Shown: positions 35,673-51,302 of the stretch, piece by piece
Layout: every line of letters starts with the position of its first letter
Numbering within the stretch: the first letter of the stretch is position 1
DNA from: Defluviitaleaceae bacterium
GTDB taxonomy: Bacteria; Bacillota; Clostridia; Lachnospirales; WQUN01
NCBI GenBank assembly: GCA_009787785.1
Contig: WQSR01000009.1
Location: 3,638 to 67,637, forward strand
DNA: 64,000 nt
Direction: 5' to 3'
Program-made: the position numbers and the translations under genes
The notes under the pieces: generated by a model
Told to the model about the DNA's origin: nothing
Database searches by the model: none
The model's input: the letters and a program-made list of their open reading frames with translations, nothing else

Positions 35673-36980
35673 ATGGCTACAGGTGTATTGATGCCGAAGG
35701 CGGGCATATCGGTTGAAAGCTGTATTATCGGCACATGGCACAAACAGCCCGGCGACCCTGTCCAGATGGGTGACATCCTCTTCGATTATGAAACGGACAA
35801 GGCTACCTTTGAGTGCGAGTCTACGGCAGTGGGGCATCTCATTGAAATTTTTTTCCAGAGCGGCGACGAGGTGCCGTGCTTGACGGTTGTGTGCGCCGTG
35901 GGGCAACCGGGCGAGGATGTTTCCGGTTTGAAGACCGGTAGCCCGCCCGTATCCGAACCCGTACCCGCATCTGCACCCGCACCCGTATCCACGCCTTCCA
36001 TAGTTGAGCCTTCCATAGCTGAGACTTCCATAACCGCGCCGCCCGCAGTGCAAGCCGGCTCCGGTATAGTGGGTGCCGTGTCCCCCCGCGCCAGAAAATT
36101 AGCGGAACGCTTGCGGGTGGATTTGCAATATGTCACCCCCACGGGCCCCCGGGGACGCGTCATCGAAAGGGATATCCAGACGGCGGCGCGTACGCTGAAA
36201 ACCGGGGACGGCATCGGCGGCCGCAGGCAGGACGGTTTTATCGGTGGGGCGGGTGCCGCTTCGGGGGTTTCTCTTGCCGCCGGCGCGGGATATACCGACG
36301 AAAAAATGTCCCCCATCCGCAAGGTTATCGCCAAATCCATGCTCAAATCCCTTACGGAAATCGCACAGCTCACCCATGTACATTCCTGCGACGCCACGGT
36401 TTTGCTAAGCCTACGGCGGCGTTTCAAAGATTCCGGCAAAGGTCTTGAGGGTATTTCCCTCAATGACCTTGTTATATTTGCCGTTGCGCGGACACTGGCC
36501 GCCCACCCCGATTTAAACGCCCACTTGGTCAATGGGGATACCTTGCGTAGGTTCAACGGGGTGCATTTGGGCATGGCGGTGGATACGCCCCGGGGCTTGC
36601 TGGTGCCGACGATTTTCAATGCCGACAAAATGAGCCTTTTGCAATTGTCGGCGGCAACAAAGGACGTAGCCGACATGGCGAAATCCGGTAGCATCAGCCC
36701 GGATTTGTTGCAGGGCGCGTCCTTTACCGTATCCAATTTAGGCGCGCTGGGGGTGGAAATGTTCACCCCGGTGATAAATCCGCCCCAGGTGGCGATTTTG
36801 GGTGTGTGCGGACTTTCCCCCAAGGTGAAGGAAGAAAATGGGAAAATTGCGGTGTATCAAAGCATGGGGCTGGCCCTGACTTACGACCACAGGGCCGTGG
36901 ACGGCGCACCCGCCTCGCGGTTTGCCGCCAATCTGGCCAAGAATCTGGAAAATATAGATTTGCTAATGATGTCTTTATAA
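35673..36980 (+). CDS. Dihydrolipoamide acyltransferase (E2) of a 2-oxoacid/acetoin-type dehydrogenase complex
   Basis: 435 aa. One lipoyl domain (ETDKATFE), a Pro/Ala linker, a subunit-binding domain (SPRARKLA...GPRGRV), and a catalytic domain with DHRAVDG. Confidence 0.93.
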   Translation: MATGVLMPKAGISVESCIIGTWHKQPGDPVQMGDILFDYETDKATFECESTAVGHLIEIFFQSGDEVPCLTVVCAVGQPGEDVSGLKTGSPPVSEPVPASAPAPVSTPSIVEPSIAETSITAPPAVQAGSGIVGAVSPRARKLAERLRVDLQYVTPTGPRGRVIERDIQTAARTLKTGDGIGGRRQDGFIGGAGAASGVSLAAGAGYTDEKMSPIRKVIAKSMLKSLTEIAQLTHVHSCDATVLLSLRRRFKDSGKGLEGISLNDLVIFAVARTLAAHPDLNAHLVNGDTLRRFNGVHLGMAVDTPRGLLVPTIFNADKMSLLQLSAATKDVADMAKSGSISPDLLQGASFTVSNLGALGVEMFTPVINPPQVAILGVCGLSPKVKEENGKIAVYQSMGLALTYDHRAVDGAPASRFAANLAKNLENIDLLMMSL

Positions 36981-36993
36981 GAAGGTGAAAGCC

Positions 36994-38364
36994 ATGTCCC
37001 AACGGCATAGCGATGTACTGATTATCGGCGGCGGCCCCGCCGGATATCTGGCCGCAGAAAGAGCGGCCCAGGGCGGCCTGACGGTGACGCTGTTTGAGAA
37101 ACGCGCCATGGGTGGCGTGTGCTTGAATGAAGGATGCATCCCCACGAAAACCCTTTTGCACTCCGCGAAAATCTACGAAACCGCCTTAAAAGGCGGCGCG
37201 TATGGCGTCACCGCCGACAATGTAAGGCTGGACCACAACGCCGTAGTCACCCGCAAGGACAAGGTAGTGAAAATGCTTGTCTCCGGTGTGGAAGGCAAGA
37301 TGAAGGCGGGCAAAATATCCGTAATAAAATCAACTGCGGTTATAAACGAAAAAAACGGAGCCCATTTTATCGTGGAAGGGGCGGGGGAAAAATACAGCGG
37401 GCGGTATATATTGCTTGCCGCAGGTTCAGAGCCCATGATTCCTCCCATACCCGGCTTGAAGGAAGGGCTCGAAAAGGGCTTCGCCGTAACCAGCCGCGAA
37501 ATCCTCGAACTGCGGGAAATACCTGAAAAGTTAACGGTTATCGGCGCGGGGGTGGTGGGCTTGGAAATGGCGGCCTACTTCGCCACGGCAGGGTCGAAAG
37601 TCAGCGTCATTGAAATGACGGAAAAGATTGCCGGCTACACCGACGCGGAAATCGCCAGCATCCTGTTGAAGGACATGCAACATAGAGGCATTGATTTCAA
37701 GCTGGGGTGCCAAGTGACCGGATTGTCCCCCGGCTCCGTTACCTATGAGAAAAACGGCAAGGCCGAAAAACTGTCAACCGACTGTGTGCTCATCGCCATA
37801 GGCCGCCGCCCCACGATTCAAAACTTGGGCTTCGAGAAATTAAACATCCACACAGAGCGGGGCGCAATCCCCACGGACAATCAACTGCGCACCAATGTTT
37901 CCGGTGTATACGCCATAGGCGACATCAACGGCAAAAGTATGCTGGCCCATACCGCCTACCGGGAGGCCGAGGTCGCCGTCAATCACATTTTGGGTAAAAA
38001 GGACACCATGCGCTATGACGCGATTCCGGCGGTGATTTACACCGCCCCCGAGGTCGCCGGGGTGGGGGAAACGGAGGAATCCGCCCGGGAAAAGGGACTG
38101 GCCTTTTCCGTGAAAAAATTATCCACGCGCTATTCCGGGCGTTTTGTGGCGGAGAACGACAAAGCCGACGGCTTATGTAAGCTTCTTATCGAAAACGGTA
38201 CGGAACGTCTCATCGGCGCGCATTTGATTGGCCCCTATGCCTCGGAAATGATTTACGGGGCGTCTATGATGATTGAGTCCCGCTGGCCGGTGGGCGATTT
38301 GAAGGAACTGGTCTTCCCCCATCCCACGGTGAGTGAAATTATACGTGAAACATTCTTTAATTAA
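36994..38364 (+). CDS. lpd: Dihydrolipoyl dehydrogenase (E3)
   Basis: The ATG at 36994 follows AGAAGGTGA. FAD motif IIGGGPAGY, redox disulfide GGVCLNEGCIPTK, and the C-terminal interface HPT.SE. Confidence 0.95.
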   Translation: MSQRHSDVLIIGGGPAGYLAAERAAQGGLTVTLFEKRAMGGVCLNEGCIPTKTLLHSAKIYETALKGGAYGVTADNVRLDHNAVVTRKDKVVKMLVSGVEGKMKAGKISVIKSTAVINEKNGAHFIVEGAGEKYSGRYILLAAGSEPMIPPIPGLKEGLEKGFAVTSREILELREIPEKLTVIGAGVVGLEMAAYFATAGSKVSVIEMTEKIAGYTDAEIASILLKDMQHRGIDFKLGCQVTGLSPGSVTYEKNGKAEKLSTDCVLIAIGRRPTIQNLGFEKLNIHTERGAIPTDNQLRTNVSGVYAIGDINGKSMLAHTAYREAEVAVNHILGKKDTMRYDAIPAVIYTAPEVAGVGETEESAREKGLAFSVKKLSTRYSGRFVAENDKADGLCKLLIENGTERLIGAHLIGPYASEMIYGASMMIESRWPVGDLKELVFPHPTVSEIIRETFFN

Positions 38365-38385
38365 TTCCCAAAAGGAGTAAAAATC

Positions 38386-40851
38386 ATGCCCAAATCCCTG
38401 CACATCAGTCCTGCCGAGTTGAAAAAAACCGGTAAAATTACCTTCAAGGACATTCCCGTAAACAGCTACAAAAAAACCGCAAAGCAAGCGCGGAAGGATT
38501 TTTCCGATGCGGAGCTGGTGCGGATTTACCGCGATATTACGATACTGCGCGAGTTTGAGCATATGCTCAACCAGATAAAAACCCAGGGTGTGTACAGCGG
38601 CATCGAGACCCAATACCCCGGCCCCGCCCATTTGTCTTTGGGGCAGGAGGCCGCCGCCGTGGGCCAGGCGTATCTGCTGGACAAGGATGACTTCATCTTC
38701 GGTAGCCACCGCAGTCACAGCGAAATTCTGGCGAAATCCCTGTCCTGCATCGAAAAGCTAAGCGACAAAGAACTCATGGAAATCATGGAGAATTTCCTGG
38801 GTGGGCGCATATTGAAGACCCTGACGAAAATATACAAGCATTCCTCCGTGAAGGAGCTGGCCATTACCTTCATTATATATGGCACGCTGACGGAGATTTT
38901 CGCCAGGGAGAACGGCTTCCATATGGGGCTTGGCGGCTCTATGCACGCCTTTTTCCTGCCCTTCGGCGTGTACCCCAACAACGCCATTGTGGGCGGCTCG
39001 GGGCCGGTGTCCATCGGCGGCGCGTTGTACAAAAAATGCAACAATAAGAAGGGCATCGTGGTGTGTAATATCGGCGACGGCTCTTTGGGATGCGGGCCTG
39101 TGTGGGAAGCCTTGAATTTCGCCGCCATGGGGCAGTTTGATACCCTGTGGAAGGATAAGCCCGGCGGCCTTCCCATTATTTTTAATGTTTTTAATAACGG
39201 CTACGGCATGGGTGGCCAAACCAGCGGCGAAACCATGGCCTATGATATGCTGGCGCGCCTGGGCGCGGGCGTGAACGCGGAGCAGATGCACGCCGAGCGG
39301 GTGTGGGGCAACGACCCGCTGGCGGTAATTGACGCTTACAAACGCAAAAAAGCCATCATTAAGAAAAACGGCGGCCCCGTGCTGTTGGATGTGGTCACTT
39401 ACCGTCATTCCGGGCATTCCACCTCGGACCAAAACGCCTACCGTTCCAAGGAGGAAATGGACGAATGGTTCGCCCTGGACCCGTGCACGGTTTTCCGCAA
39501 TGAACTGGTGGAGGCGGGGGTCGCCGCCGACGGAGTTTTCGACGACATCTGGACGCAAACCCGGGAACGCATGAAGCAAATTTGCCAATGGGCCTCCAGC
39601 GAAGAGATTTCCCCCTACATGGATTTGAAAAAAGACCGCGCCGCCGTGGAACGCATTATGTTTTCGAATACGAAAATCCCCGTCCTTGGAAAGGAAAAGC
39701 CGGTTGTGCTGATTCCCAAGGAGGAATGCTCACGGGTGAAGCAAATCGCGGGCAAGGAGCGGTTCGCCCTTAAAAATGGCAAGCCCGTGAGCAAGATGAA
39801 ATGCTACAACTACCGCGACGCCATTTTTGAGCCCATTTTGGATAAATGCTACGAGGATTCCTCGTTGATACTCTATGGTGAGGACGTGCGGGACTGGGGC
39901 GGGGCCTTCGCGGTATACCGCGGCCTGGCCGAGGTTTTGCCCCATTCCAGATTGTTCAACGCGCCCATTTCCGAGGCCGCCATTGTGGGCAGTGCCGTGG
40001 GCTATGGGCTTTGCGAGGGCCGTGCGGTGGTAGAGCTTATGTATTGCGATTTCATCGGTAGGGCAGGGGACGAGATATTCAATCAGCTTTCGAAATGGCA
40101 ATCCATGAGCGCGGGTATTTTAAAGATGCCTGTGGTATTGCGGGTTTCCGTTGGGTCGAAATACGGTGCCCAGCATTCCCAGGACTGGACCGCGCTGTGC
40201 GCCCACATTCCGGGGTTGAAGATTTGCTTCCCCGCCACGCCCTATGAGGCCAAGGGCCTGATGCAAACCGCGCTGAACGGCACCGACCCCGTTGTATTTT
40301 TCGAGAGCCAGCGGCTCTATGATATGGGCGAGCAATTCCAGGAAGGCGGCGTTCCCGCCGAGCCCTACGAGCTGGAAATCGGCGACGTGAACGTGGTGCG
40401 CACGGGCAAGGACATTACCATTTTGACCATCGGCGCGACGCTGTACAAAGCCGTGGAAGCCGCAGAGATTTTGAAGGATACATTCGGCATGGAAGCGGAT
40501 ATTATCAACCTGTACAGCCTTGTCCCCCTGGACTATACGAAAATCGTGGCGTCGGTGAAGAAGACCGGGAAGCTGGTGCTGGCCTCCGATGCCTGTGCGC
40601 GGGGCTCCTTCCTGAGCGACATTGCGCGGAATGTAACCGAGCTGTGCTTCGACGATTTGGACGCGCCGCCGGTGGTGGTGGGTGCGAAAAACTGGATAAC
40701 CCCGCCCTTTGAGTTCGATGAATTTTTCTTCCCCCAGGCGGGCTGGATTCTGGACGCGATAAACGAAAGCATCATCCCGCTACCCGGCCATGTACCGGTT
40801 GAAAGCTTTACCGTGATGGAGCAACTACGCAAGGCTAAACTGGGGGTTTAG
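38386..40851 (+). CDS. Fused E1 alpha-beta thiamine-diphosphate-dependent dehydrogenase component
   Basis: 821 aa. The N-terminal half is E1-alpha-like (HLSLGQEA...GDGS...N.YG). The C-terminal half is E1-beta/transketolase-pyrimidine-like (FNAPISEAAIVG...) with a transketolase_C domain. Confidence 0.88.
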   Translation: MPKSLHISPAELKKTGKITFKDIPVNSYKKTAKQARKDFSDAELVRIYRDITILREFEHMLNQIKTQGVYSGIETQYPGPAHLSLGQEAAAVGQAYLLDKDDFIFGSHRSHSEILAKSLSCIEKLSDKELMEIMENFLGGRILKTLTKIYKHSSVKELAITFIIYGTLTEIFARENGFHMGLGGSMHAFFLPFGVYPNNAIVGGSGPVSIGGALYKKCNNKKGIVVCNIGDGSLGCGPVWEALNFAAMGQFDTLWKDKPGGLPIIFNVFNNGYGMGGQTSGETMAYDMLARLGAGVNAEQMHAERVWGNDPLAVIDAYKRKKAIIKKNGGPVLLDVVTYRHSGHSTSDQNAYRSKEEMDEWFALDPCTVFRNELVEAGVAADGVFDDIWTQTRERMKQICQWASSEEISPYMDLKKDRAAVERIMFSNTKIPVLGKEKPVVLIPKEECSRVKQIAGKERFALKNGKPVSKMKCYNYRDAIFEPILDKCYEDSSLILYGEDVRDWGGAFAVYRGLAEVLPHSRLFNAPISEAAIVGSAVGYGLCEGRAVVELMYCDFIGRAGDEIFNQLSKWQSMSAGILKMPVVLRVSVGSKYGAQHSQDWTALCAHIPGLKICFPATPYEAKGLMQTALNGTDPVVFFESQRLYDMGEQFQEGGVPAEPYELEIGDVNVVRTGKDITILTIGATLYKAVEAAEILKDTFGMEADIINLYSLVPLDYTKIVASVKKTGKLVLASDACARGSFLSDIARNVTELCFDDLDAPPVVVGAKNWITPPFEFDEFFFPQAGWILDAINESIIPLPGHVPVESFTVMEQLRKAKLGV

Positions 40852-40852
40852 T

Positions 40853-41923
40853 ATGCTGACGCAAATTATTCCGGCGTTGCGGATGCTGTATTCCCTGGAA
40901 ATGGGGCGGCTGGCGACGGCGACATTCCATGCCGGGGCGCAGGACGGGGAGCTGACCCTCAGCGAGGAGAACAATTTTTCGGATGTAGACATAAAAAAAT
41001 CATTTCAGGATTATTGCAAATCCGGGGGCGTACCCCCCCAGCGTGTTGTAGTGGGGATCATGGGCGTTGTCGAATTGGCTTGCCACGCATCCCCCGGAGG
41101 ACGCCTGGCCGGGAAAATCGCCATCGTTACGGGCAGTGCCCAGGGCTTCGGCAAGGGCATCGCGGAAGCCTTGGCCGCCGAAGGCGTGTATGTGGTCATC
41201 GCTGACATCAACGCCGGGGGCGCGGCGGAATGTGCCGCCGGGCTGAATGAAAAATATGGGGCGTACCGTTCCCTTCCCGTTGCGGTCAACGTGACCGACG
41301 AAGCCTCCGTGGAAAACATGGTGCGCGAAACCGTCTTGGCCTATGGCGGCTTGGATATTTTGATTTCCAACGCGGGGGTAGTGCGCTCGGGCAATTTATT
41401 TGAGTTGACCAAGGAAAATTTCGAATTTGTGACGGCGGTGAACTATACCGCCTTCTTTTTATGCGCCAAGCACGCCGCCGCTGTGATGAAACGCCAGCAC
41501 GACATCACCCCGGCTTTTCCCGCCGATATCATTGAAATAAATTCAAAATCCGGCCTGGAGGGTAGTAATAAGAATTTTGCCTACGCGGGGAGCAAGTTCG
41601 GCGGGATTGGCCTGACCCAGTCCTTCGCCATGGAATGCATCGAGTATGGCATAAAGGTCAACGCCGTGTGCCCGGGGAATTTCCTGGACGGCCCCCTGTG
41701 GGCGGACCCGGTGAACGGGCTGTTCAAGCAATATCTGGACGCGGGCAAGGTGAAGGGCGCGAAGACCATCGCCGATGTGCGCAAATACTACGAAAGCCGC
41801 GTGCCCATGGGGCGCGGCTGTGAAATCGCCGACGTGGCCCGCGCCATCTTCTACGCGGTGGAGCAACAATACGAAACGGGCCAGGCCATTCCCGTGACGG
41901 GGGGGCAGGTGATGCTGAAATGA
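40853..41923 (+). CDS. Short-chain dehydrogenase/reductase (sorbitol-6-phosphate-dehydrogenase-like) with an N-terminal extension of about 95 aa
   Basis: SDR core: GKIAIVTGSAQGFG, NAG, and YAGSK as the YxxxK catalytic motif. The ATG at 40853 lies 1 nt after the E1 stop. The extension has no recognised family. Confidence 0.8.
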   Translation: MLTQIIPALRMLYSLEMGRLATATFHAGAQDGELTLSEENNFSDVDIKKSFQDYCKSGGVPPQRVVVGIMGVVELACHASPGGRLAGKIAIVTGSAQGFGKGIAEALAAEGVYVVIADINAGGAAECAAGLNEKYGAYRSLPVAVNVTDEASVENMVRETVLAYGGLDILISNAGVVRSGNLFELTKENFEFVTAVNYTAFFLCAKHAAAVMKRQHDITPAFPADIIEINSKSGLEGSNKNFAYAGSKFGGIGLTQSFAMECIEYGIKVNAVCPGNFLDGPLWADPVNGLFKQYLDAGKVKGAKTIADVRKYYESRVPMGRGCEIADVARAIFYAVEQQYETGQAIPVTGGQVMLK

Positions 41924-43068
41924 TAAACAATCACATCCACACGATTTATTCCTTTTCGCCCTACACCCCAGCGACGGCGGTGCGCCTTGCCAAGGAAAAC
42001 GGATTGCAAACCGCCGGCATCATGGACCACGACAGTGTGGCTGGTTTGCGGGAATTTATCCGGGCCGGGCAGGAAGAGGGCATCGGCGTGACGGTGGGCT
42101 TCGAGTTGCGCACCTGCTTCAAGGGCACGCCCTTTGCGGGGCGGCGCATTAACAATCCCGACCAGGATTCGGTGGCGTATTTGGCCATGCACGGCATCCC
42201 CCATGATAAAATCGACGCGGCCGACGCCTTTTTGAAGCCGTACCGGGAAGCGCGGAATATCCGCAACCGGAGGATGACCGAGAAGCTGGATGCCTTCGTC
42301 CGAGGGGCGGGGCTGGCAATGGATTTCGACAAGGACGTGTTGCCCCTTTCCCAGCATGAAAAAGGCGGCTCAGTTACCGAGCGGCATATCCTCTTCGCGC
42401 TGGCGGAAAAAACAATGGGGCAGGTGGCCCCCGGCCCGGCTACCATTGCTTTCTTGAAAGACCATTTCGGCATCGAAGCAAGGGGAAAAAACCTGCAAAT
42501 GCTCAGTGACTCCGGCAACGCGTGGTACGCCTATTATTTGCTGGGCGTGCTGAAAGCGGATATGATGGCGCATTTTTACCTTGACGCGGACGCAGAATTG
42601 CCAGATTATAAGAATTTTATTTCCCTGGCCGAAGAAATCGGCGCGATTCCCGCCTATGCCTATTTGGGTGATGTGGGCGACTCCATTACAGGAGATAAAA
42701 AAACGCAGAAATTTGAAGATGAATTTTTGGATGAACTCATTATTTTTTTGAAGGAAGCCGGATTTAGAGCCATTACCTACATGCCGGCAAGGAACACAAG
42801 TGAACAACTTGCGCGTTTAATTACACTATGCGAGCAACATGAAATATTCGAAATTTGTGGCGAGGACATCAATTCCCCCTTCCAGCCCTTCGTGTGCAAG
42901 GAGCTCGAAAGGGCGGAATACAAGCATCTTGTGGACGCCGCCTGGGCGTTGATTGGCCATGAGAAGGCGGGCTTCGGCGCGGGGTTGTTTTCCCAAGGGG
43001 CGATACACAATTATCCCGCCCTGAAGGAACGCGTAAAACATTTTGCAAATATGGGGAGAGCGCGATGA
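41920..43068 (+). CDS. PHP-domain (polymerase/histidinol-phosphatase-like) metal-dependent phosphoesterase
   Basis: 382 aa. N-terminal NNHIHTIYS His motif and GIMDHD. ATGA overlap with the SDR stop. Confidence 0.7.
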   Translation: MINNHIHTIYSFSPYTPATAVRLAKENGLQTAGIMDHDSVAGLREFIRAGQEEGIGVTVGFELRTCFKGTPFAGRRINNPDQDSVAYLAMHGIPHDKIDAADAFLKPYREARNIRNRRMTEKLDAFVRGAGLAMDFDKDVLPLSQHEKGGSVTERHILFALAEKTMGQVAPGPATIAFLKDHFGIEARGKNLQMLSDSGNAWYAYYLLGVLKADMMAHFYLDADAELPDYKNFISLAEEIGAIPAYAYLGDVGDSITGDKKTQKFEDEFLDELIIFLKEAGFRAITYMPARNTSEQLARLITLCEQHEIFEICGEDINSPFQPFVCKELERAEYKHLVDAAWALIGHEKAGFGAGLFSQGAIHNYPALKERVKHFANMGRAR

Positions 43069-44321
43069 AAACAAAAGCGGTTCGATTGTATGGCGTGGAC
43101 GACTTGCGGCTGGAGGAATTTGAACTACCTCCCGTAGGCGCGGAGGAATTGCTGGTGAAAATCGTCGCGGATTCCGCGTGTATGTCCACCTACAAAGCGG
43201 TAAAGCAGGGAAGCGCGCACAAGCGCGTGCCGGACAATGTCCATGAAAATCCTGTCATTGTGGGCCATGAGTTCTGCGGGGAAATAGTGGAAGTGGGGCA
43301 AAATCTGGCCGGACAATATCAGCCCGGACAGAAATTCACCATGCAACCGGGGATGAAGGGCACCATGGAGGCGGCGGGATATTCCTTCCCGCACCTCGGC
43401 GGCAATATGACCCACGGGATTATCCCCAAATGTTATTTTGACCAGAGCTGTGTATTATTATATGAAGGGGAGGGTTTTTTCCACGGCTCACTGACGGAGC
43501 CCCTCTCCTGCGTGATTGGGGCCACCCGCGCCAATTATCACACCCGCCAAGGGGAATATATCCACGACATGGATATAAAAGAAGGCGGAAATATGGCCAT
43601 CTTGGGGGGTTGCGGGCCCATGGGCTTTGCCCATATTGATTATATTTTGCACCGCGACCGGAAGCCGGGCCTGCTGGTGGTTACGGATGTGAAGCAGGAT
43701 AATCTTGACGCGGCGGCGGCGGCTCTTACTGTGGCGAATGCCTTAGAAAACGGCATAAAGCTGGTTTATTTTAATCCCGCGTCCTCCCCTGACCCGGTGG
43801 GAGAGCTCATGAAGCTGACCCATGGGCGCGGGTACGATGACGTTTTCGTATTTTTCCCCCTGGCTGGGCTGGTGGAGCAAGCCGACGCGATACTGGCCAA
43901 CGATGGATGCCTTAATTTTTTTGCCGGGCCAGCGGATACGGCGTTTTCCGCGAAATTGAATTTCTACAATGTGCATTACAACGCCACCCATGTGGTGGGC
44001 ACCAACGCGGGCAACATCGACGACATGAAAGAAGCCTTGGCCATGGCGGCGGCGGGGAAAATTAACCCCGCGGTGCTGGTCTCCCACGTGGGGGGGCTGG
44101 ACGCGGTTGCGGAAACGATTCTAAACCTGCCCGGCATACCCGGCTTCAAAAAGTTAATCTACAATGAAATTTCCATGCCTCTCACCGCGATAAAAGATTT
44201 TGCGGATAAAGGGGAAAAATGTCCGTTTTATAAAACATTAGCGGATATATGCAAGCAAAATAATGGCCTTTGGAGTGTTGAAGCGGAAAAATATCTATTG
44301 GAACACGCGCCAAGGCTGTAA
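43065..44321 (+). CDS. Zinc-type medium-chain dehydrogenase/reductase (L-sorbose-1-phosphate-reductase-like)
   Basis: 418 aa. Motifs CMSTYK...GHEFCGEIVEVG and the Rossmann motif GGCGPMG. ATGA overlap upstream. Confidence 0.8.
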   Translation: MKTKAVRLYGVDDLRLEEFELPPVGAEELLVKIVADSACMSTYKAVKQGSAHKRVPDNVHENPVIVGHEFCGEIVEVGQNLAGQYQPGQKFTMQPGMKGTMEAAGYSFPHLGGNMTHGIIPKCYFDQSCVLLYEGEGFFHGSLTEPLSCVIGATRANYHTRQGEYIHDMDIKEGGNMAILGGCGPMGFAHIDYILHRDRKPGLLVVTDVKQDNLDAAAAALTVANALENGIKLVYFNPASSPDPVGELMKLTHGRGYDDVFVFFPLAGLVEQADAILANDGCLNFFAGPADTAFSAKLNFYNVHYNATHVVGTNAGNIDDMKEALAMAAAGKINPAVLVSHVGGLDAVAETILNLPGIPGFKKLIYNEISMPLTAIKDFADKGEKCPFYKTLADICKQNNGLWSVEAEKYLLEHAPRL

Positions 44322-46207
44322 TGAACGCGGATAATATTATCTTCATCGAAATGGAAAGCCGTGACGCCGCTTTCCATTTTTCGCTTGAGGAATATTTAAT
44401 GCAGGGGCATGTCCACGGCACAGCGGATATCATGATGCTCTGGCAGGTTGACCCGTGTGTGATGCTGGGCAACAATCAAATTGCCCAGGCCGAAGTGGAT
44501 ACGCATTTCGCACAGCGCGAGGGGATTCAGCTTACGCGCCGTTCCAGCGGGGGAGGGGCGATTTACGCCGACGGGGGGACGTTATTTTATACCTGGATTT
44601 CGTGCCACGCTTCACCGGAATCCGCTAAGGAACAATTCGCGGATTCCATCGTGGACGCATTGACCGGCATGGGCATCCCCGCGAAAAAGGAAGGCCGCAA
44701 TGACATCTGCGTGGAGGGGAAAAAAATCACGGGCATGGCCCAATACGCAAGGCACGGCAGGATTTGCACCCACGGTTCCCTGCTATATGACACAGATTTG
44801 GAAAAGCTTGCCTGTGTCCTGCAACCGGACAATAAAAAATTTCAGGGGAAGGCTGTGCGCTCGGTGCGCAGTCGGGTGGGGAATGTAAAGGATATCGCGG
44901 GCTTGACCCGCAACTCCCTAAGCGAAACTACCATCGGCAAATTCAAAACGAAATTAAAACACAAATTATTGCACGAAAAGAAATTTATCGAATATTCCCT
45001 GACAAAAAATGACATTCACGAAATAAACAAAATAAATAAAAACAAATACGCGAACCCTGTTTGGACCTTCGGTCACGCGCCGAATTTTACTTTTCACAAC
45101 AGCAAGCGTTTCCCCGGCGGCACAGTGGGGATATATATAAATGTAGAAAAAGGCGTGGTGCAGGATTGCGCCATTCGCGGGGATTTTTTGGGCATCGCCC
45201 CCATAAATGAACTGGAGCGGCACTTCATAGGCAAGCCCTTCCGGTACGACGCCCTTTGCGACAGCATCAACGGCGTAGAGCTCCAGCCCTACCTGGGCAA
45301 TATCAGCCGGGACGAATTTTTATCCCTCCACGCACCGGAGCGCAAGCCGGACTGGCTACGCCTTCGCCATGTTGAAAACCCCAATCAGGAATATGTTGAA
45401 AAAATTTTGCGCGAAAATAACCTGAACACCGTATGCCGCGAGGCCAACTGTCCCAACCAAGGAGAATGCTTCTCCCAAAAAACCGCGACTTTTATTATTA
45501 TGGGGACACACTGCACGCGGAGCTGTCGTTTTTGTAATATTCAAAATGGCCCGCCCAAGCCCCTCGACTCCGGCGAGCCCCAACGCGTGGCCAATGCGAT
45601 AAAATCGCTGGAATTGAAATACGCGGTCATCACCTCGGTGACGCGGGACGACTTGCCCGACGGCGGCGCGGCCCATTTCGCCAAAACCATCGCGGAAATC
45701 CGCAAGGCCACCCCGGAAACCCTCATCGAGGTGCTGATACCCGATTTCGCCGGGGATTTCGCCGCCCTCAAAACCGTAACGGACGCCACCCCCGACGTAA
45801 TCAGCCACAACATGGAGACCGTGGCCTCCCTCTACGATATTGTCCGTCCCCAAGCCGGGTACCGCCGTTCCCTGGAAATAATCCACAAAATAAAGCAGTT
45901 AAATCCCCGTATCCGCACAAAAAGCGGCATCATGCTGGGCATGGGCGAAACCGACGAAGAAATCCACGCCGTTATGCGCGACCTGCGGGAGGCGGACTGT
46001 GCAATTTTGACCATCGGGCAATATCTCCCGCCTTCTGACCGCCACCACCGTGTGGCGGAATATGTAACGCCGCAAAAATTCGAGGCATGGGGCGTGGCGG
46101 CCCGGGAAGCCGGCTTCGCCTTCGTGGCGTCCGCGCCCCTCGTCAGGAGCTCCTTCCGCGCAGGTGAGGCGGGCAAACTACTCCCACTAAACGGAGGCAT
46201 ACAATGA
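44321..46207 (+). CDS. Fusion protein: lipoate-protein ligase A (LplA) N-terminal half and lipoyl synthase (LipA) C-terminal half
   Basis: 628 aa. Residues about 1-330 are LplA-like (RRSSGGGAIYADGG...KITGMAQ). Residues about 335-628 are LipA, with the auxiliary cluster CREANCPNQGEC, the radical-SAM motif CTRSCRFC, and the C-terminal RSSF. Confidence 0.85.
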   Translation: MNADNIIFIEMESRDAAFHFSLEEYLMQGHVHGTADIMMLWQVDPCVMLGNNQIAQAEVDTHFAQREGIQLTRRSSGGGAIYADGGTLFYTWISCHASPESAKEQFADSIVDALTGMGIPAKKEGRNDICVEGKKITGMAQYARHGRICTHGSLLYDTDLEKLACVLQPDNKKFQGKAVRSVRSRVGNVKDIAGLTRNSLSETTIGKFKTKLKHKLLHEKKFIEYSLTKNDIHEINKINKNKYANPVWTFGHAPNFTFHNSKRFPGGTVGIYINVEKGVVQDCAIRGDFLGIAPINELERHFIGKPFRYDALCDSINGVELQPYLGNISRDEFLSLHAPERKPDWLRLRHVENPNQEYVEKILRENNLNTVCREANCPNQGECFSQKTATFIIMGTHCTRSCRFCNIQNGPPKPLDSGEPQRVANAIKSLELKYAVITSVTRDDLPDGGAAHFAKTIAEIRKATPETLIEVLIPDFAGDFAALKTVTDATPDVISHNMETVASLYDIVRPQAGYRRSLEIIHKIKQLNPRIRTKSGIMLGMGETDEEIHAVMRDLREADCAILTIGQYLPPSDRHHRVAEYVTPQKFEAWGVAAREAGFAFVASAPLVRSSFRAGEAGKLLPLNGGIQ

Positions 46208-49200
46208 AGATAAGCGTGAAAAAAGGGCTTGTAAGCTTTGTGTACGGCCTGATTTTTGGGGTTGGCAGTCCCGTTCCGGGGGTCAGTGCGGGAACGGTGG
46301 CGATTTTGCTCAATGTGTATGACAAATTTTTCAATTCAATTAACAAGGCCGCCGCGAAGAAGAATTTGCTCCCCATTATTATTTTTTTGCTGGGGTGGAT
46401 TGCGGGTCTTTTAAGCATCAGCAATGTGATGCTGTTTCTCTTTGAAAACCACGGAAAATTAATTTCCTTTACCTTCATCGGGCTGGTGTCGGGGTGCATC
46501 CCCATGATTTATCGAAAGGCAAAGGCAGGCCCCGGGAAAATCTGGCACGGCGTTGCCTTCCTGGCGGCACTGGGATTTATGTTTTTCCTTGCCTTCTACG
46601 GCGGGGATTTAACGACAAACAATACCCTCGAACAACTGGGGGGTGTGACGCCAACCCTGCTGATTTGGCTTTTTGTCGCGTGTTTTTTCAGCTCCATGGC
46701 CATGCTCATCCCCGGGGTGGGCGGGTCGCTGATGATGATTGTATTCGGCATTTATACGATTTACATTGAAGCGGTGGCCACCTTTGATATTGTTGTACTG
46801 GGTGTTTTTGTCGTCAGCATGGTCTTGGGGGTGCTGGCGGGCATTTTAATTACGAAAAAAATATTGGAGCGTTTCCCCAAAATGCTGTACTGCGCGATTT
46901 TGGGTTTAATCCTTGGCTCTTTGTTGCTGTTGTACCCCGGATTTACCTTTGGCTTGGAGGGCATGTTGGCCATCGCGCTGGCCGGTGTGGGATTTGGGTT
47001 TGCCTACTGGCTTTCGAAAAAGGAGGCGCGGGAGCCGGAAATCAGCCTTCCCGAAGCCTCGCCTCGTGAAATTGCCCATCAAAACCTCGCCCGTCAGGCC
47101 GCCGCCGAAGGCATTGTACTGTTGGAAAACGACGGTACGCTACCCATCCCGCCTGGCCGGATTGCGCTATACGGCGCGGGGGCGGCGGCCACGATTAAAG
47201 GCGGGACGGGCAGTGGTGAGGTCAACGAGCGGCATTCCGTGACTATCCGCGAGGGGCTCGTCCGTGCCGGATTTGAAATCACCACCCCGGCGTGGCTGGA
47301 CGAATATGTACACCTGCTGGCGGCGAAAAAGAAGCAGTTTTACCGCAAATTCTTTAGAAAGGCGTGGGTTGCGGCCTTCGGCGACGACGACTTGCGCATT
47401 AACATCATGGCGGATTTCTTCCGTTATCCCGTGGGGCCGCTGATAGCAGATATTTCCGACGATGCCGATACCTGCATTTACGTTATCGCAAGGCAAGCCG
47501 GGGAATGCTCCGACCGCAGTTTGGAAAAATTCGATTACCTCCTGGAACCTGACGAAATAGCTAACATAAAAACGGTGGCCGCGCACTACCGCAAGACCAT
47601 CATCGCCATCAACGTGGGCGGCTACATGGATTTGACCCCCTTGGATGAAATGGAAGGCATTAACGCGGTGGTCTTCTTTTGCCAGCAGGGCATGGAGGGC
47701 GGGAATGCATTTGCCGATGTTATAACCGGAAAAATTTCGCCTTCGGGATGCTTGTCCGGCACATGGACGAAAAAATATGACGATATTCCTTTCGCCCGAG
47801 AATACAGTTACTTCAAAGGGGAGCGCGTACAGAACAAAATAAAGGAATACTATAAGGAGGGCATCTATGTCGGCTACCGTTATTTTGACAGTTTTGGGGT
47901 GGTGCCCAGATATGAATTTGGATATGGCCTGACCTATTCAGAGTTCAAAATCGAATACGTCCATTCAACCGTGGAGAAAACAAAAATAGTAACGTCAGTA
48001 CGTGTAATCAACACCGGGAAATACGCCGGGAAAAAAGTCGTCCAACTCTACGCAAGCTGTCCCCACGGGCGGCTCACCCGGGAATACCAGAGCCTTGCCG
48101 CCTTCGGAAAAACCCGCACCCTTCAACCCGGCGAAGCCGAAACCATCGCCATGTCCTTTGATTTTGCCGCCTTGGCGGGATACGACACGCCGTCCTCCTC
48201 GTTTTTGCTGGAGGCGGGGGAGTATATTTTGCGCCTGGGTTCTTCCTCCAGACAAGCGGAGGCCGTGGCGGTGGCCACCCTGGACAAGCGCGTAATCACC
48301 GAGCAATGCAAGCCCATTTGCCCCCTGGCAGACATCCTGGATGAAATAATCCCCCCAGCCGGCACCCGCGAAGAAATGTGCGTTACAACCGAAAAACTAA
48401 CCATCCGCGCCGATGATTTTTTCACAAAAAAAATTACCTACGACTTGCCGGAGCCCCAATACAGCCCGAAGGTACAGGAATGGATGAAATCCCTCACCTT
48501 GGACGACATGATGAAATGCGTGGTGGGAACGGGATTTTTCTCCTCCAGCAGAAAAGGGCTGACCGCTCCCGGCGCGGCGGGGAGGACGACGCGGGATTTT
48601 GTGGACAAGGGCATCCCGGAGGTGATTTTTTGCGACGGCCCGGCGGGGCTTAGGTTGCGCAGAACATCGGTTATAACCCCCTCGGGCAAAATCAAGCCCG
48701 CAGACGCCATGCTGGAAATGCTGAACCATATCCCCGCCATATTCAAGAAATGGGTCTTCGCCGACCCCAGCAAAGGCCGGCCCTCTTACCAATTCGCCAC
48801 GGCCTTCCCCGTGGGCATGGCCATAGCCCAGACCTGGAGCGTGGATTTGCTGGAACGCTTCGGTCAAGCCATAGGCACGGAAATGAAGGAATTTGGCGGG
48901 AATTACTGGCTGGCCCCCGGCATGAACATCCACCGCAACCCCCTGTGCGGCCGCAATTACGAATACTACAGCGAAGACCCGCTACTCTCTGGCAAGCTGG
49001 CCGCCGCGGCAACCATTGGCTTGCAAAGCTTTCCCGGATGCGCCGCCACCATCAAGCACTTTGTGGCCAACAACCAGGAAACCTGGCGCAACCATTCCGA
49101 CAGCGTCGTCTCCGAACGCGCCCTGCGCGAAATTTACCTGCGCGGCTTTAAAACCGCCGTCACGGAAGGCGGCGCGAAGTCCGTCATGACCAGCTACAAC

Positions 49201-49545
49201 CTCGTAAACGGCACCTACACCCCCAACAGTCACGACTTGTGCACAAAAGTCCTGCGCTGTGAATGGGGCTTCAACGGCGTGGTCATGACCGACTGGCTCT
49301 CCACCGGAAAAAATATGGCAAAGAACGGACTGGCCCTGAAAAGCGGCAACGATTTAATCATGCCGGGCGGGAAGGGGTACCTGAAGAAATTGCAAGCAGA
49401 TTTCGCGAAGGGCGAGGTATCGGAAGCAGACATTCGCCGCTGTTGCGGCAATATATTGGAAGCTATTCACACGGAGGAAAAATATGGGAGAAACAGCGCA
49501 GTCTTTGAGAGAAAAAGGCATATGCCCAACTTGTTACAATCGTGA
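46204..49545 (+). CDS. Fusion protein: DUF368 polytopic membrane domain and permuted family-3 glycoside hydrolase
   Basis: 1113 aa. Residues 1 to about 280 carry two DUF368 repeats (VPGVSAGT and IPGVGGSL) and about 8 TM segments. The rest is GH3 in the order sandwich domain, Fn3-like domain, then barrel. It contains KHFVANNQE and the nucleophile context GVVMTDW. ATGA overlap with the upstream stop. Confidence 0.85.
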   Translation: MKISVKKGLVSFVYGLIFGVGSPVPGVSAGTVAILLNVYDKFFNSINKAAAKKNLLPIIIFLLGWIAGLLSISNVMLFLFENHGKLISFTFIGLVSGCIPMIYRKAKAGPGKIWHGVAFLAALGFMFFLAFYGGDLTTNNTLEQLGGVTPTLLIWLFVACFFSSMAMLIPGVGGSLMMIVFGIYTIYIEAVATFDIVVLGVFVVSMVLGVLAGILITKKILERFPKMLYCAILGLILGSLLLLYPGFTFGLEGMLAIALAGVGFGFAYWLSKKEAREPEISLPEASPREIAHQNLARQAAAEGIVLLENDGTLPIPPGRIALYGAGAAATIKGGTGSGEVNERHSVTIREGLVRAGFEITTPAWLDEYVHLLAAKKKQFYRKFFRKAWVAAFGDDDLRINIMADFFRYPVGPLIADISDDADTCIYVIARQAGECSDRSLEKFDYLLEPDEIANIKTVAAHYRKTIIAINVGGYMDLTPLDEMEGINAVVFFCQQGMEGGNAFADVITGKISPSGCLSGTWTKKYDDIPFAREYSYFKGERVQNKIKEYYKEGIYVGYRYFDSFGVVPRYEFGYGLTYSEFKIEYVHSTVEKTKIVTSVRVINTGKYAGKKVVQLYASCPHGRLTREYQSLAAFGKTRTLQPGEAETIAMSFDFAALAGYDTPSSSFLLEAGEYILRLGSSSRQAEAVAVATLDKRVITEQCKPICPLADILDEIIPPAGTREEMCVTTEKLTIRADDFFTKKITYDLPEPQYSPKVQEWMKSLTLDDMMKCVVGTGFFSSSRKGLTAPGAAGRTTRDFVDKGIPEVIFCDGPAGLRLRRTSVITPSGKIKPADAMLEMLNHIPAIFKKWVFADPSKGRPSYQFATAFPVGMAIAQTWSVDLLERFGQAIGTEMKEFGGNYWLAPGMNIHRNPLCGRNYEYYSEDPLLSGKLAAAATIGLQSFPGCAATIKHFVANNQETWRNHSDSVVSERALREIYLRGFKTAVTEGGAKSVMTSYNLVNGTYTPNSHDLCTKVLRCEWGFNGVVMTDWLSTGKNMAKNGLALKSGNDLIMPGGKGYLKKLQADFAKGEVSEADIRRCCGNILEAIHTEEKYGRNSAVFERKRHMPNLLQS

Positions 49546-49939
49546 ACATGGCGGCATTTATGAGGACATAGCCGAAAGAATGTTATATGAAGATGATTTA
49601 TTAGCATGTTTTTTTGAAATCAAACCCCGCCAAGTTGGGCACACGATTATTTTATTAAGAGAACATTATCATGATATGTCTTTTATACCGGATGATGTAT
49701 GCGCGGCAGTTTATGTGTTTGCTAAAAAAGTTATGAATGTATTAAAAGAAGTATTACATGTCGAGAGGGTTTATTTGTGTACAATGTGTGATACAAAAGC
49801 GAACCATTTTCATGTTCAGTTGATTCCAAGACACCCTGATACAATTCATGGTTCAGTTAATTTTGTAAAAGAACGCATGGATTATGTAGAAAACAAAACA
49901 CACATAAGCATGATTAGAGAAAAGTTAAAAAATGACTAA
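49484..49939 (+). CDS. HIT-family (histidine triad) protein
   Basis: 151 aa. GGAGGAAAAAT RBS. Triad variant NHFHVQLIP. Overlaps the GH3 3' end by 62 nt. AT-rich. Confidence 0.75.
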   Translation: MGETAQSLREKGICPTCYNREHGGIYEDIAERMLYEDDLLACFFEIKPRQVGHTIILLREHYHDMSFIPDDVCAAVYVFAKKVMNVLKEVLHVERVYLCTMCDTKANHFHVQLIPRHPDTIHGSVNFVKERMDYVENKTHISMIREKLKND

Positions 49940-49978
49940 TGGTATTATTTCAGTTACTAAAAAGGGGGGAATTATTTA

Positions 49979-50596
49979 ATGAACATTGAAATACGGAAGC
50001 TAACACCTAACAATGTGGATGATTACGCTTGCTTTTTCGATACTACACCGCACAACAACGCAAACAAAGGTGATAAATGTTATTGTGTGACATTTTGCAA
50101 TGACAAAGTTTATCACGGCGGCGGCGAACATTGGTATCCAACGCCGGATGAACGCAGAACGCACGGCATAAAGCGCGTAATGGAAGGCGATATACAGGGT
50201 TATTTAGCTTACAGCGAAGATAATGTAATCGGTTGGTGCAACGCCAACGCTAAGACAAATTGCCAGTTTGTTATAGCTAATATGCAAACCAGAGCGGGTG
50301 TTCCTGTAGAGGATTGCAGAGCAGACGAAAAAATAAAATCCGTTTTTTGTTTTGCGATTGCGCCAAAGGTACAAAAAATGGGCATTGCCACGCGATTGCT
50401 TGAGCATATTTGCAAAGAAGCCGCCACAGAGGGTTTTGACTTTGTTGAAGCATATACACATAGAGATTTTATACAAGACGGTTTTAGAGGAACTTTAACA
50501 TTGTATAAAAATTGTGGGTTTAGCATATACGCAGAAAAGGACGGCAAATTAGTTGTGCGAAAAGAATTAAAAAACATGCATCGTTTCGTACATTAA
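49979..50596 (+). CDS. GNAT-family N-acetyltransferase
   Basis: 205 aa. Acetyl-CoA motif region IAPKVQKMGIATRLLEHI. AT-rich. Confidence 0.75.
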   Translation: MNIEIRKLTPNNVDDYACFFDTTPHNNANKGDKCYCVTFCNDKVYHGGGEHWYPTPDERRTHGIKRVMEGDIQGYLAYSEDNVIGWCNANAKTNCQFVIANMQTRAGVPVEDCRADEKIKSVFCFAIAPKVQKMGIATRLLEHICKEAATEGFDFVEAYTHRDFIQDGFRGTLTLYKNCGFSIYAEKDGKLVVRKELKNMHRFVH

Positions 50597-50805
50597 CCCG
50601 CTTGTTGGCTTGTATAAATCATGGGCTTGGGGATAAATATGCCTTTGTTATGCATTACTTCTAATTGTAGCTGTATTGCTTCTTGTATTTCCCGTATTGC
50701 TTCCTCTCTTGTGTCGCCATGAGCCATGCATCCCTTTAATTCAGGAACAGACGCCACATATATTTTGTCGATGTCATCATATTGAATCAATATTGAATAT
50801 TGCAT
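50593..50805 (-). CDS. hicB: HicB-family antitoxin
   Basis: The ATG at 50803-50805 follows GGAGGTG. The product MQYSILIQYDDIDKIYVASVPELKGCMAHGDTREEAIREIQEAI has the typical HicB N-terminal fold. Confidence 0.8.
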   Translation of the reverse strand: MQYSILIQYDDIDKIYVASVPELKGCMAHGDTREEAIREIQEAIQLQLEVMHNKGIFIPKPMIYTSQQAG

Positions 50806-50821
50806 ATTGCACCTCCATGAA

Positions 50822-51061
50822 CTAAAGACCATGTGCCATTATTATTCCACGTAATTGTCTAACTTGATACCCTTTTGCCTTATTACCGTCTGGTTGAATG
50901 TTCATAAATTCGCCGATTCCATTATGGTAATAAATAACATGTGACCCTTTTTGCCGTTCAAATATAAACCCCAAATCTATAATAAGATTTTGAAAGTCAG
51001 CATATCTAATATTATTATCTGATTGTCCATTTATTACAACGTAGTATATTTTATTTTTCAT
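50822..51061 (-). CDS. hicA: HicA-family mRNA interferase toxin
   Basis: The ATG at 51059-51061 follows AAGGTG. Motif ERQKGSHVIYYH. Immediately upstream of hicB. Confidence 0.8.
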   Translation of the reverse strand: MKNKIYYVVINGQSDNNIRYADFQNLIIDLGFIFERQKGSHVIYYHNGIGEFMNIQPDGNKAKGYQVRQLRGIIMAHGL

Positions 51062-51118
51062 TCGGCTATACACCTTGAATAATGAGAGTGAATAAGAATG
51101 CTTGACAACATCTCTTGG

Positions 51119-51153
51119 AAAAACCCCGCAAATGTTGATTTTGCGGGGTTTTT
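51119..51153 (-). terminator. Intrinsic terminator after tRNA-Trp (flanking A and T runs make it bidirectional in shape)
   Basis: CCCCGCAAA-(7 nt)-UUUGCGGGG followed by UUUUU on the minus strand. Confidence 0.7.
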
Positions 51154-51158
51154 ATTTC

Positions 51159-51231
51159 CAGGGGTAGTAGGATTTGAACCCACAACTTTCGGTTTTGGAG
51201 ACCGACGCTCTACCAATTGAACTATACCCCT
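51159..51231 (-). tRNA. tRNA-Trp (anticodon CCA)
   Basis: The minus strand reads AGGGGTATAGTTCAATTGGTAGAGCGTCGGTCTCCAAAACCGAAAGTTGTGGGTTCAAATCCTACTACCCCTG. The cloverleaf arms pair and the anticodon loop is CUCCAAA. Confidence 0.9.
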
Positions 51232-51302
51232 TAGCGGCAACCATTATAATCCCAGGGGCAAATCCTGTCAAACGCAAGGTGGCGGGCTGGGGGGCTTTTG
51301 CG

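Follow-up and report, generated by a model that had tools for sequence, protein, structure and literature searches.

A Defluviitaleaceae MAG from a termite-gut-type Firmicute encodes a complete DUF368 membrane domain joined in frame to a complete permuted GH3 glycosidase. The fusion ORF (1113 aa; DUF368, linker and permuted GH3) runs without interruption from 46204 to 49545 on the + strand of the window (the whole 64,000-nt stretch of DNA analysed), as seen from the reading frame, Pfam domains and protein searches. It is probably a real, lineage-specific fusion of two complete genes, near-neutral in effect, that tethers a cytoplasmic GH3 enzyme to the membrane. Conserved residues are intact in both halves, the join is unique to this protein, the two families are not adjacent in the relatives examined, and the junction runs from the natural end of one protein to the natural start of the other. 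Nothing indicates functional cooperation of the two halves.

Architecture and database records

Pfam profile searches place DUF368 (PF04018), GH3_C, Fn3-like and GH3_N domains in that order, from N to C terminus, on one continuous ORF. The fusion of DUF368 to a permuted GH3, as described in an initial annotation of this DNA, is thereby confirmed, and the region 47030-47060, where a stop or frameshift might have separated two genes, has neither. Codon usage and GC3 of the DUF368 half and of the GH3 half both agree with those of the upstream operon. The protein is identical to GenBank MCL2202396.1 and MCL2239006.1, and it is also found on contigs of differing length (184,679 and 187,944 bp). Over 15,342 nt an ENA contig matches the window exactly, so the assemblies may stem from overlapping read sets. 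The same sample also contains other Defluviitaleaceae contigs with DUF368, which may belong to other species.

The DUF368 half and its topology

Residues 1-271 (46204..47016, +) form a complete membrane domain of the DUF368/PopT family, as judged from Pfam, NCBIfam, homologs, an AlphaFold2 model and charge distribution. The VCA0040-like/DUF368 profile PF04018 matches aa 19-245 at 95.7 bits (cut-off 26), covering profile positions 2-230 of 246, in agreement with the family assignment made initially. The duplicated motif is present as VPGVSAGT in repeat 1 (aa 24-31; 46273..46296, +) and IPGVGGSL in repeat 2 (aa 169-176; 46708..46731, +), which the AlphaFold2 model places at the tips of the first and second re-entrant hairpins, respectively. 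Residues P25, G26 and G30 of repeat 1 and P170, G171 and G174 of repeat 2 are invariant among 100 DUF368 homologs; against the same homologs, the fusion keeps 14/14 invariant columns and 41/41 columns that are at least 90% conserved. Its score with the NCBIfam PopT equivalog NF052563 (102.3 bits) lies below the cut-off of 400. Judged by sequence, the domain is a member of the family and not a demonstrated PopT orthologue, and it is presumed to be a polyprenyl-phosphate transporter.

The AlphaFold2 model of this half (pLDDT 91) has short helices on either side of both PGxxGx motifs, and lysine plus arginine residues are distributed 18 inside to 1 outside. Model and charges fit six membrane-spanning helices plus two re-entrant hairpins, N-in/C-in, in place of the approximately eight transmembrane helices first counted; parity is even under either count. 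With an even number of crossings and both termini inside, GH3 is predicted to stay cytoplasmic. This location is as expected because GH3 homologs have no signal peptide; a hydrophobic N terminus is absent from 118 of 119 of them. The published PopT model is an inverted repeat with re-entrant loops at both bilayer sides (10.1101/2022.02.03.479048). A Foldseek search of the DUF368 model against the PDB gave no match with E below 0.05, and there is therefore no experimental topology reference for DUF368.

The GH3 half

Three domains make up the GH3 half: an (alpha/beta)6-sandwich (Pfam GH3_C, aa 304-558; 47113..47877, +; 111.6 bits), an Fn3-like domain (aa 612-682; 48037..48249, +; 50.3 bits) as well as a (beta/alpha)8-barrel (Pfam GH3_N, aa 854-1080; 48763..49443, +; 130 bits). 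Both catalytic residues are kept on alignment with Thermotoga neapolitana Bgl3B (TnBgl3B). The nucleophile Asp1030 (49291-49293, +), within the intact VMTDW context noted initially (aa 1027-1031), aligns with Asp242, and the acid/base Glu434 (47503-47505, +), in QAGECSDR of the sandwich domain, aligns with Glu458. The barrel carries GRNYEYYSEDP (aa 916-926) and KHF (aa 951), the motif EFGYGLTYS is present, and the half agrees at 195/197 columns that are at least 95% conserved. With hundreds of stand-alone enzymes that lack a signal peptide it shares 50-63% identity, and its best NCBIfam equivalog scores are far under their cut-offs. The permuted domain order defines a subfamily already described (PMC5104943, PMC11233000), of which one member, BrGH3A, has no signal peptide and has been proposed to act intracellularly (PMC11233000). 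The GH3 half is, from its sequence, an ordinary intracellular three-domain permuted exo-beta-glycosidase of the BrGH3A/GlyA1 type, and the 50-63% family identity suggests beta-glucosidase or beta-xylosidase activity towards soluble oligosaccharides.

The junction

Homolog ends, an indel test and AlphaFold2 delimit the junction and linker, KKEAREPEISLPEASP (aa 272-287; 47017..47064, +); taken from aa 271, the segment SKKEAREPEISLPEASP (aa 271-287) is the short, charged linker of the initial annotation. It is modelled with low confidence (mean pLDDT 67-74). Of 40 close stand-alone DUF368 proteins, the majority terminate in YWLSKK(G/E), equivalent to aa 268-274 of the fusion, and the rest have variant endings or short extra tails. 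Among the close GH3 homologs examined, RE(I/V)AH is in most cases preceded by 16 residues, so that Met1 of these proteins aligns with K272. Neither a stop codon nor a spacer nor a canonical start codon lies at the junction. A Shine-Dalgarno-like AAGGAGG at about 47020-47026 might have served as an internal ribosome-binding site, but it codes for the KKE conserved at the C terminus of DUF368 proteins and is followed by no canonical start within 5-12 nt, only by an ATC 14 nt downstream; it is probably incidental. Promoter and terminator counts across 44000-51500 differed by no more than about 1.4 sd from the counts in shuffled sequence, with no convincing internal signal at the junction.

A small error could have merged two real genes here, a DUF368 gene with its own stop and a GH3 gene with its own start. 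The junction coincides exactly with the natural ends of the genes, and an error of 2 bp within an ATGA overlap there would suffice; the architecture is a singleton out of metagenome assemblies, and the agreement with the ENA contig may be dependent at the read level. We nevertheless regard such an error as improbable. No single-base indel at the junction recreates two normal genes, which rules out a simple frameshift artefact, and ATG, GTG and TTG are all missing from the GH3 frame between aa 263 and aa 306, leaving no start before aa 307. The junction DNA has no repeat of at least 14 nt elsewhere in the window that could seed a chimera, and the identical protein appears under two accessions, and on contigs of differing lengths. 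From their names (k141_...), the contigs look like products of short-read MEGAHIT assembly, in which case 2-bp deletions would be rare errors. Searched as an exact or gapped pattern, the junction DNA had no match in JGI metagenome contigs, a set to which the source sample evidently does not belong.

Uniqueness of the join

A full-length search of 5.8e9 clusters returned PF04018 and GH3 together only in the query among the 120 best matches, the remaining 119 being stand-alone GH3 proteins (813-946 aa, at most 63% identical), and when 1.84e9 representatives were searched exhaustively by HMMER with query aa 1-400, no match crossed the junction; cluster and representative searches of this kind could overlook a fusion in a cluster whose representative is a stand-alone protein. 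Word-index searches with DUF368-only and junction-centred queries miss long targets, even the fusion itself, and were kept out of the uniqueness claim. The initial annotation knew of no description of the link, and we likewise found none: in large protein searches only the query sequence shows it, as a singleton with no taxonomic spread. Among the papers searched, DUF368 and glycoside hydrolase are co-mentioned in one alone, a study of ampC induction.

Nor are the two families neighbours in the loci surveyed. In five neighbourhoods, GH3 relatives had no DUF368 nearby and DUF368 relatives had no GH3 nearby; GH3 was found in 0/80 metagenome DUF368 loci, and 80 LipA loci had no GH3-DUF368 adjacency. 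Recurrent fusion or adjacency across independent lineages, which marks a functionally linked (‘Rosetta-stone’) fusion, was thus not seen, and from a lone fused architecture in a MAG no functional link should be read without recurrence.

Genomic context and origin

Immediately upstream lies a tightly packed operon (35673..46207, +), given here as context, that encodes E2, E3 and fused E1 alpha/beta subunits of a 2-oxoacid dehydrogenase complex, an SDR, a PHP protein, a Zn-ADH and an LplA-LipA fusion for lipoylation. The start codon of the DUF368-GH3 gene overlaps the stop codon of the LplA-LipA gene in an ATGA (46204..46207, +), suggesting translational coupling, and two other gene junctions of the operon have the same overlap. 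This is not a glycan operon, and no sugar transporter, glycan-utilisation or envelope-glycan genes lie near the fusion. Synteny with the closest relative carrying the same operon (L014) stops at about 46170, where unrelated genes follow LipA, and a further relative (L016) likewise has the operon without DUF368 and GH3. The fusion gene is not part of the operon as a conserved unit, given that the nearest relative with this operon has other genes in its place. The same evidence lends no support to the proposal that DUF368 is the uptake module for a catabolic operon: the operon is of the 2-oxoacid dehydrogenase type, and its L014 and L016 versions contain neither gene.

The end-to-start junction is consistent with a stop/start overlap having been lost within a tightly packed operon. 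DUF368 and GH3 genes would have become neighbours at the end of such an operon, and the stop/start junction between them would then have been lost. The simplest route would be the loss of 2 bp (TG) from an ATGA overlap (TCG AAA TGA AG GAG to TCG AAA AAG GAG), which would take out just the stop codon and the GH3 Met. No close relative is present in the databases, where the DUF368 half finds at most 70% identity and the GH3 half at most 63%; we therefore infer rather than observe the ancestral adjacent-gene state and the TG deletion. As such, the gene offers a clean example of a seamless fusion arising from tightly packed operons with ATGA overlaps.

Functional interpretation

We assume that the fusion is most likely near-neutral and not a coupled machine. 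The GH3 enzyme would sit at the inner membrane face on a linker of ~16 residues, both termini of the membrane domain being cytoplasmic; it is predicted that it probably still hydrolyses imported beta-gluco- or xylo-oligosaccharides, and the DUF368 part probably keeps its own role. That both halves are fully conserved is compatible with maintained function and with a very recent event alike. The latter admits a recent, as yet unpurged, mildly deleterious mutation that impairs one or both halves through GH3 misfolding, lost oligomerisation or disturbed DUF368 insertion, with the cell relying on other copies. The fusion is a singleton without conservation, its intact halves are what a very recent event would leave, and the additional DUF368-bearing contigs of the sample, if not from other species, could supply such copies. 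We consider this unlikely, as the gene stands in a translationally coupled operon without signs of decay and C-terminal cytoplasmic passengers on DUF368 are known elsewhere (for example, P0241, described below).

Tethering could instead be adaptive, with DUF368 anchoring GH3 beside oligosaccharide importers or co-opted for uptake, and no lipid-carrier chemistry involved. The cytoplasmic orientation and ~16-residue linker would hold the enzyme near the membrane, and the habitat is one of lignocellulose-degrading gut communities in which this GH3 subfamily is common (PMC5104943). This is a doubtful explanation, however: the locus has no sugar transporter or glycan-utilisation genes nearby, the fusion is absent from other lineages despite hundreds of homologs of each half, and the DUF368 half has all family-invariant residues, which a mere anchor would not need.

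Less probable still is a coupled machine in which the substrate of GH3 is a glycan, either polyprenyl-phosphate-linked or membrane-proximal, and hydrolysis is linked to carrier-lipid flipping by DUF368. Some GH3 members use phosphate as nucleophile acceptor, and the enzyme would sit at the leaflet that receives UndP. We know of no link between GH3 enzymes and a lipid carrier. DUF368 proteins are candidate C55-P translocases, with meaningful fusions to PAP2 and BacA (PMC9876793) and to WecG/TagA. Against coupling, which the initial annotation had raised, neither the fusion nor adjacency is conserved, the two genes never being neighbours in the relatives examined; the GH3 half resembles stand-alone enzymes of an oligosaccharide-active subfamily (195/197 positions), with no sign of new specificity; and no envelope-glycan genes lie near the fusion, unlike at the P0241 locus. 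If true, coupling would tie the hydrolysis of glycosides to recycling of the lipid carrier, an idea that envelope biology has yet to explore. More speculative still, and very improbable, is that the tethered GH3 is a carrier-lipid salvage enzyme, cleaving beta-glycosyl-phosphoryl-polyprenols or other dead-end lipid-linked sugars by hydrolysis or phosphorolysis and freeing polyprenyl phosphate where PopT delivers it; this would make it the first glycoside hydrolase to form part of the undecaprenyl-phosphate cycle. The evidence points to the isolated, near-neutral fusion of two well-populated families favoured above, and its value is modest: a DUF368 C terminus that tolerates a large cytoplasmic passenger could be useful for tagging and topology work on PopT proteins, which have no solved structure.

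Comparison with known systems

The N-terminal 271 aa resemble PopT/DUF368 proteins (Staphylococcus aureus SAOUHSC_00846 and Vibrio cholerae VCA0040; PMC9876793, 10.1101/2022.02.03.479048) in their nearly full PF04018 match, duplicated PGxxGx motifs and confident inverted-repeat model with two re-entrant hairpins, but differ in being followed by a soluble C-terminal passenger of 840 aa, which no other DUF368 protein was seen to carry. That passenger shares its sandwich-FnIII-barrel order with GlyA1 (PDB 5K6L, PMC5104943; match collinear over query residues 20-544, 369 bits), BrGH3A (814 aa, PMC11233000) and the P. barengoltzii enzyme (PDB 5WUG), and like BrGH3A it has no extra C-terminal domain (~840 aa); unlike these permuted enzymes, it has a covalent link to a membrane protein in place of the N-terminal Met. 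The best PDB sequence match is T. neapolitana Bgl3B (PDB 2X40; 474 bits), a canonical-order GH3 whose D242/E458 correspond to D1030/E434, with a domain order circularly permuted relative to that of the fusion. Functionally coherent DUF368 fusions have been described as DUF368-PAP2, PAP2-DUF368 and DUF368-BacA (PMC9876793). We also found a DUF368-WecG/TagA fusion (P0241) whose enzyme is a C-terminal cytoplasmic domain and whose locus is a polysaccharide-synthesis cluster. As in those proteins, DUF368 is here covalently joined to an enzyme, and the P0241 passenger is C-terminal and cytoplasmic as in our fusion; their partners (PAP2, BacA and WecG/TagA), in contrast to GH3, act on undecaprenyl-(pyro)phosphate-linked substrates. 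DUF368-WecG/TagA is the biologically more meaningful lead on PopT function than DUF368-GH3.

A membrane-glycosidase fusion with intact halves

The initial annotation, made from sequence alone, reported a DUF368 membrane domain joined to a permuted GH3 enzyme, and this architecture is borne out by an uninterrupted 1113-aa open reading frame (46204..49545, + strand) with four Pfam domains in order: PF04018 (VCA0040-like/DUF368; aa 19-245, 95.7 bits), GH3_C (aa 304-558), Fn3-like (aa 612-682) and GH3_N (aa 854-1080). The paired motif, short charged linker and VMTDW sequence that it described were each found where it had placed them, and its N-terminal family assignment and catalytic residues also held on comparison with family models and alignments. 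In the GH3 part, D1030 of VMTDW, the nucleophile, aligns to D242 of Thermotoga neapolitana Bgl3B, and E434 (QAGECSDR) aligns to the acid/base E458. The nearest NCBIfam models are GH3 glucosidase, xylosidase and arabinopyranosidase, with scores far under their cut-offs. The best 119 database relatives all stand alone, at lengths of 813-946 aa and 50-63% identity; 118 of them lack a hydrophobic N-terminus, and the fusion matches 195 of 197 columns that are ≥95% conserved among GH3 relatives. In comparisons with PDB sequences, Bgl3B (2x40) matches the GH3 part at 474 bits in circularly permuted domain order, whereas GlyA1 (5k6l) has the same order and is collinear over query residues 20-544. By sequence, the GH3 half is an ordinary member of an already described subfamily: GlyA1 is the enzyme for which, in 2016, the permuted topology was defined (PMC5104943), and it was extended to BrGH3A, an 814-aa enzyme without signal peptide for which an intracellular role on beta-1,3/1,4-gluco-oligosaccharides has been proposed (PMC11233000).

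The DUF368 half is likewise a complete, intact family member, retaining 41/41 columns ≥90% conserved among its homologs. Its nearest NCBIfam model is the polyprenyl-phosphate transporter PopT (102 bits, far under its equivalog cut-off, 400). The closest relatives of this half stand alone; most are 260-290 aa long, identity reaches 70%, and many come from termite-gut-type metagenomes and other Defluviitaleaceae metagenome-assembled genomes (MAGs). An AlphaFold2 model of aa 1-310 (100 homologs; pLDDT 91, pTM 0.82) loses confidence only in the linker (aa 273-286), and a structure search of the PDB with the DUF368-half model found no similar solved structure. The helices were assigned to six membrane-spanning segments and two re-entrant hairpins, each with a PGxxGx motif at its centre; Lys and Arg then number 18 on one face of the membrane and 1 on the opposite face. 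Re-entrant loops entering from either side of the bilayer, in an inverted repeat, have also been described for a model of PopT (10.1101/2022.02.03.479048). The number of crossings, which the initial annotation had named as deciding the location of the enzyme, is even whichever way the hairpins are counted, and the N-terminus is Lys-rich, so the DUF368 C-terminus should lie on that same, cytoplasmic side. The GH3 enzyme is thus predicted to remain in the cytoplasm, where its homologs work.

Junction, origin and genomic context

Of 40 close stand-alone DUF368 proteins, most terminate in ...AYWLSKK(G/E), corresponding to fusion aa 268-274; the remainder vary in their endings or run on for a short extra stretch. 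Among the close GH3 homologs examined, the majority start MKK..., exactly 16 residues ahead of a conserved RE(I/V)AH, so that their Met1 aligns with fusion K272 and the join is end-to-start. The junction has neither a spacer nor a stop codon nor a start codon for GH3; between aa 263 and 306 there is no canonical in-frame start, and no single-base indel at the junction recreates two normal genes. ATGA stop/start overlaps occur at three operon junctions, one of them where LplA-LipA meets the fusion gene. Loss of 2 bp (TG) from an overlap of this kind (TCG AAA TGA AG GAG to TCG AAA AAG GAG) would yield exactly the present junction and would leave the GH3 N-terminus just as long as in the homologs. 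That the fusion is a recent, mildly deleterious mutation seems rather unlikely.

An artefact is improbable. Over 15,342 nt the ENA contig and the window do not differ, so the assemblies may draw on overlapping reads; against an artefact, two GenBank accessions carry the identical protein, as do ENA and JGI (contigs of 184,679 and 187,944 bp), both halves match the operon in GC3 and codon usage, unlike the next downstream genes, and the junction has no repeat of at least 14 nt elsewhere in the window.

Upstream lies a tightly packed operon (35673-46207, +) encoding E2, E3 and a fused E1 alpha/beta (821 aa) of a 2-oxoacid dehydrogenase complex, an SDR, a PHP-domain protein, a Zn-ADH and LplA-LipA, with no evident glycan connection. 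Large parts are common to a Defluviitaleaceae MAG (L014; E1 88% identical) and, rearranged, to a Treponema MAG (L016; E1 55% identical), a hint that the operon is a catabolic module that is mobile, or has been kept convergently, among bacteria of the termite-gut type. A single 628-aa reading frame (44321-46207, +) encodes both the lipoate-protein ligase LplA, with its catalytic and C-terminal domains, and LipA, the radical-SAM lipoyl synthase. Single-HSP matches suggest the same fusion at three loci (L011-L013; Lachnospiraceae, Oscillospiraceae and Family XIII), and in the closest relative, L014, lipoate ligase and LipA are two overlapping reading frames (373 and 290 aa).

Composition breaks sharply at the 3' end of the fusion gene (49484-50600, on to ~51300), where HIT and GNAT genes (GC3 0.28 and 0.37; operon genes 0.62-0.73) have low codon-usage similarity to the operon and lie near HicB-like and HicA-like genes. 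The region was probably inserted by horizontal transfer, and rearrangement at the break may have brought the fusion partners together. The longest HIT reading frame overlaps the fusion gene by 62 nt (49484-49545); because the HIT domain match begins only at residue 29 and another Met follows at residue 33 (nt 49580), HIT translation probably starts downstream of the stop codon of the fusion.

Recurrence and comparison with a second DUF368 fusion

The combination of DUF368 and GH3 was seen nowhere else, both parts being of already known kinds, and the fusion is not recurrent in the data reached. Among the best 120 matches in a database of 5.8e9 clusters, only the query itself combined PF04018 with GH3. 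In an exhaustive HMMER search of 1.84e9 representatives with aa 1-400, every match lay on one side of the junction, never both; in the 50%-identity library the fusion protein is represented by another sequence. Long targets, the fusion protein among them, are missed by word-index searches that start from short queries, and such searches are not counted for uniqueness. No DUF368 gene was found near P0005 or P0008, the two close GH3 relatives whose neighbourhoods were inspected, no GH3 gene near the Defluviitaleaceae DUF368 genes looked up, and none among 80 metagenome loci with DUF368 relatives (72/80 with ≥300 nt downstream). The closest genome fragment to share the upstream operon, L014 (E1 88% and ADH 80% identical), continues after LipA into unrelated genes, synteny with the window ending at ~46170.

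We favour, as the probable reading, a real, lineage-specific and probably near-neutral fusion in which a normal cytoplasmic beta-glycosidase is tethered to the inner membrane face via a PopT-family protein, both halves keeping their own roles. Adaptive tethering, or use of DUF368 as an anchor, is an unlikely alternative. Nothing found supports a new mechanism arising from the fusion.

A second fusion indicates how a functionally coherent DUF368 fusion looks. P0241, a 526-aa protein (L171:5001-6581; L172:2820-4400) 49% identical to the DUF368 half, ends in a WecG/TagA/CpsF glycosyltransferase domain (PF03808, 174 bits). Enzymes of the WecG/TagA family act at the cytoplasmic face, and this C-terminal domain independently supports a cytoplasmic DUF368 C-terminus. 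P0241 was assembled independently twice (ENA ERZ27257345 and Logan SRR5247065) and is followed by Polysacc_synt_2 and RmlD-like genes of a surface-polysaccharide cluster. The DUF368 fusions in the part of Sit et al. 2022 considered here are with PAP2 and BacA only. The coupling of hydrolysis to carrier-lipid flipping proposed in the initial annotation is very improbable. The GH3 fusion has none of these features of P0241: an undecaprenyl-linked partner enzyme, a polysaccharide cluster and two independent assemblies. Unlike the GH3 fusion, P0241 carries a partner enzyme that uses undecaprenyl-linked substrates, and it ties PopT-family proteins to Und-PP-sugar glycosyltransfer in a functionally coherent way.
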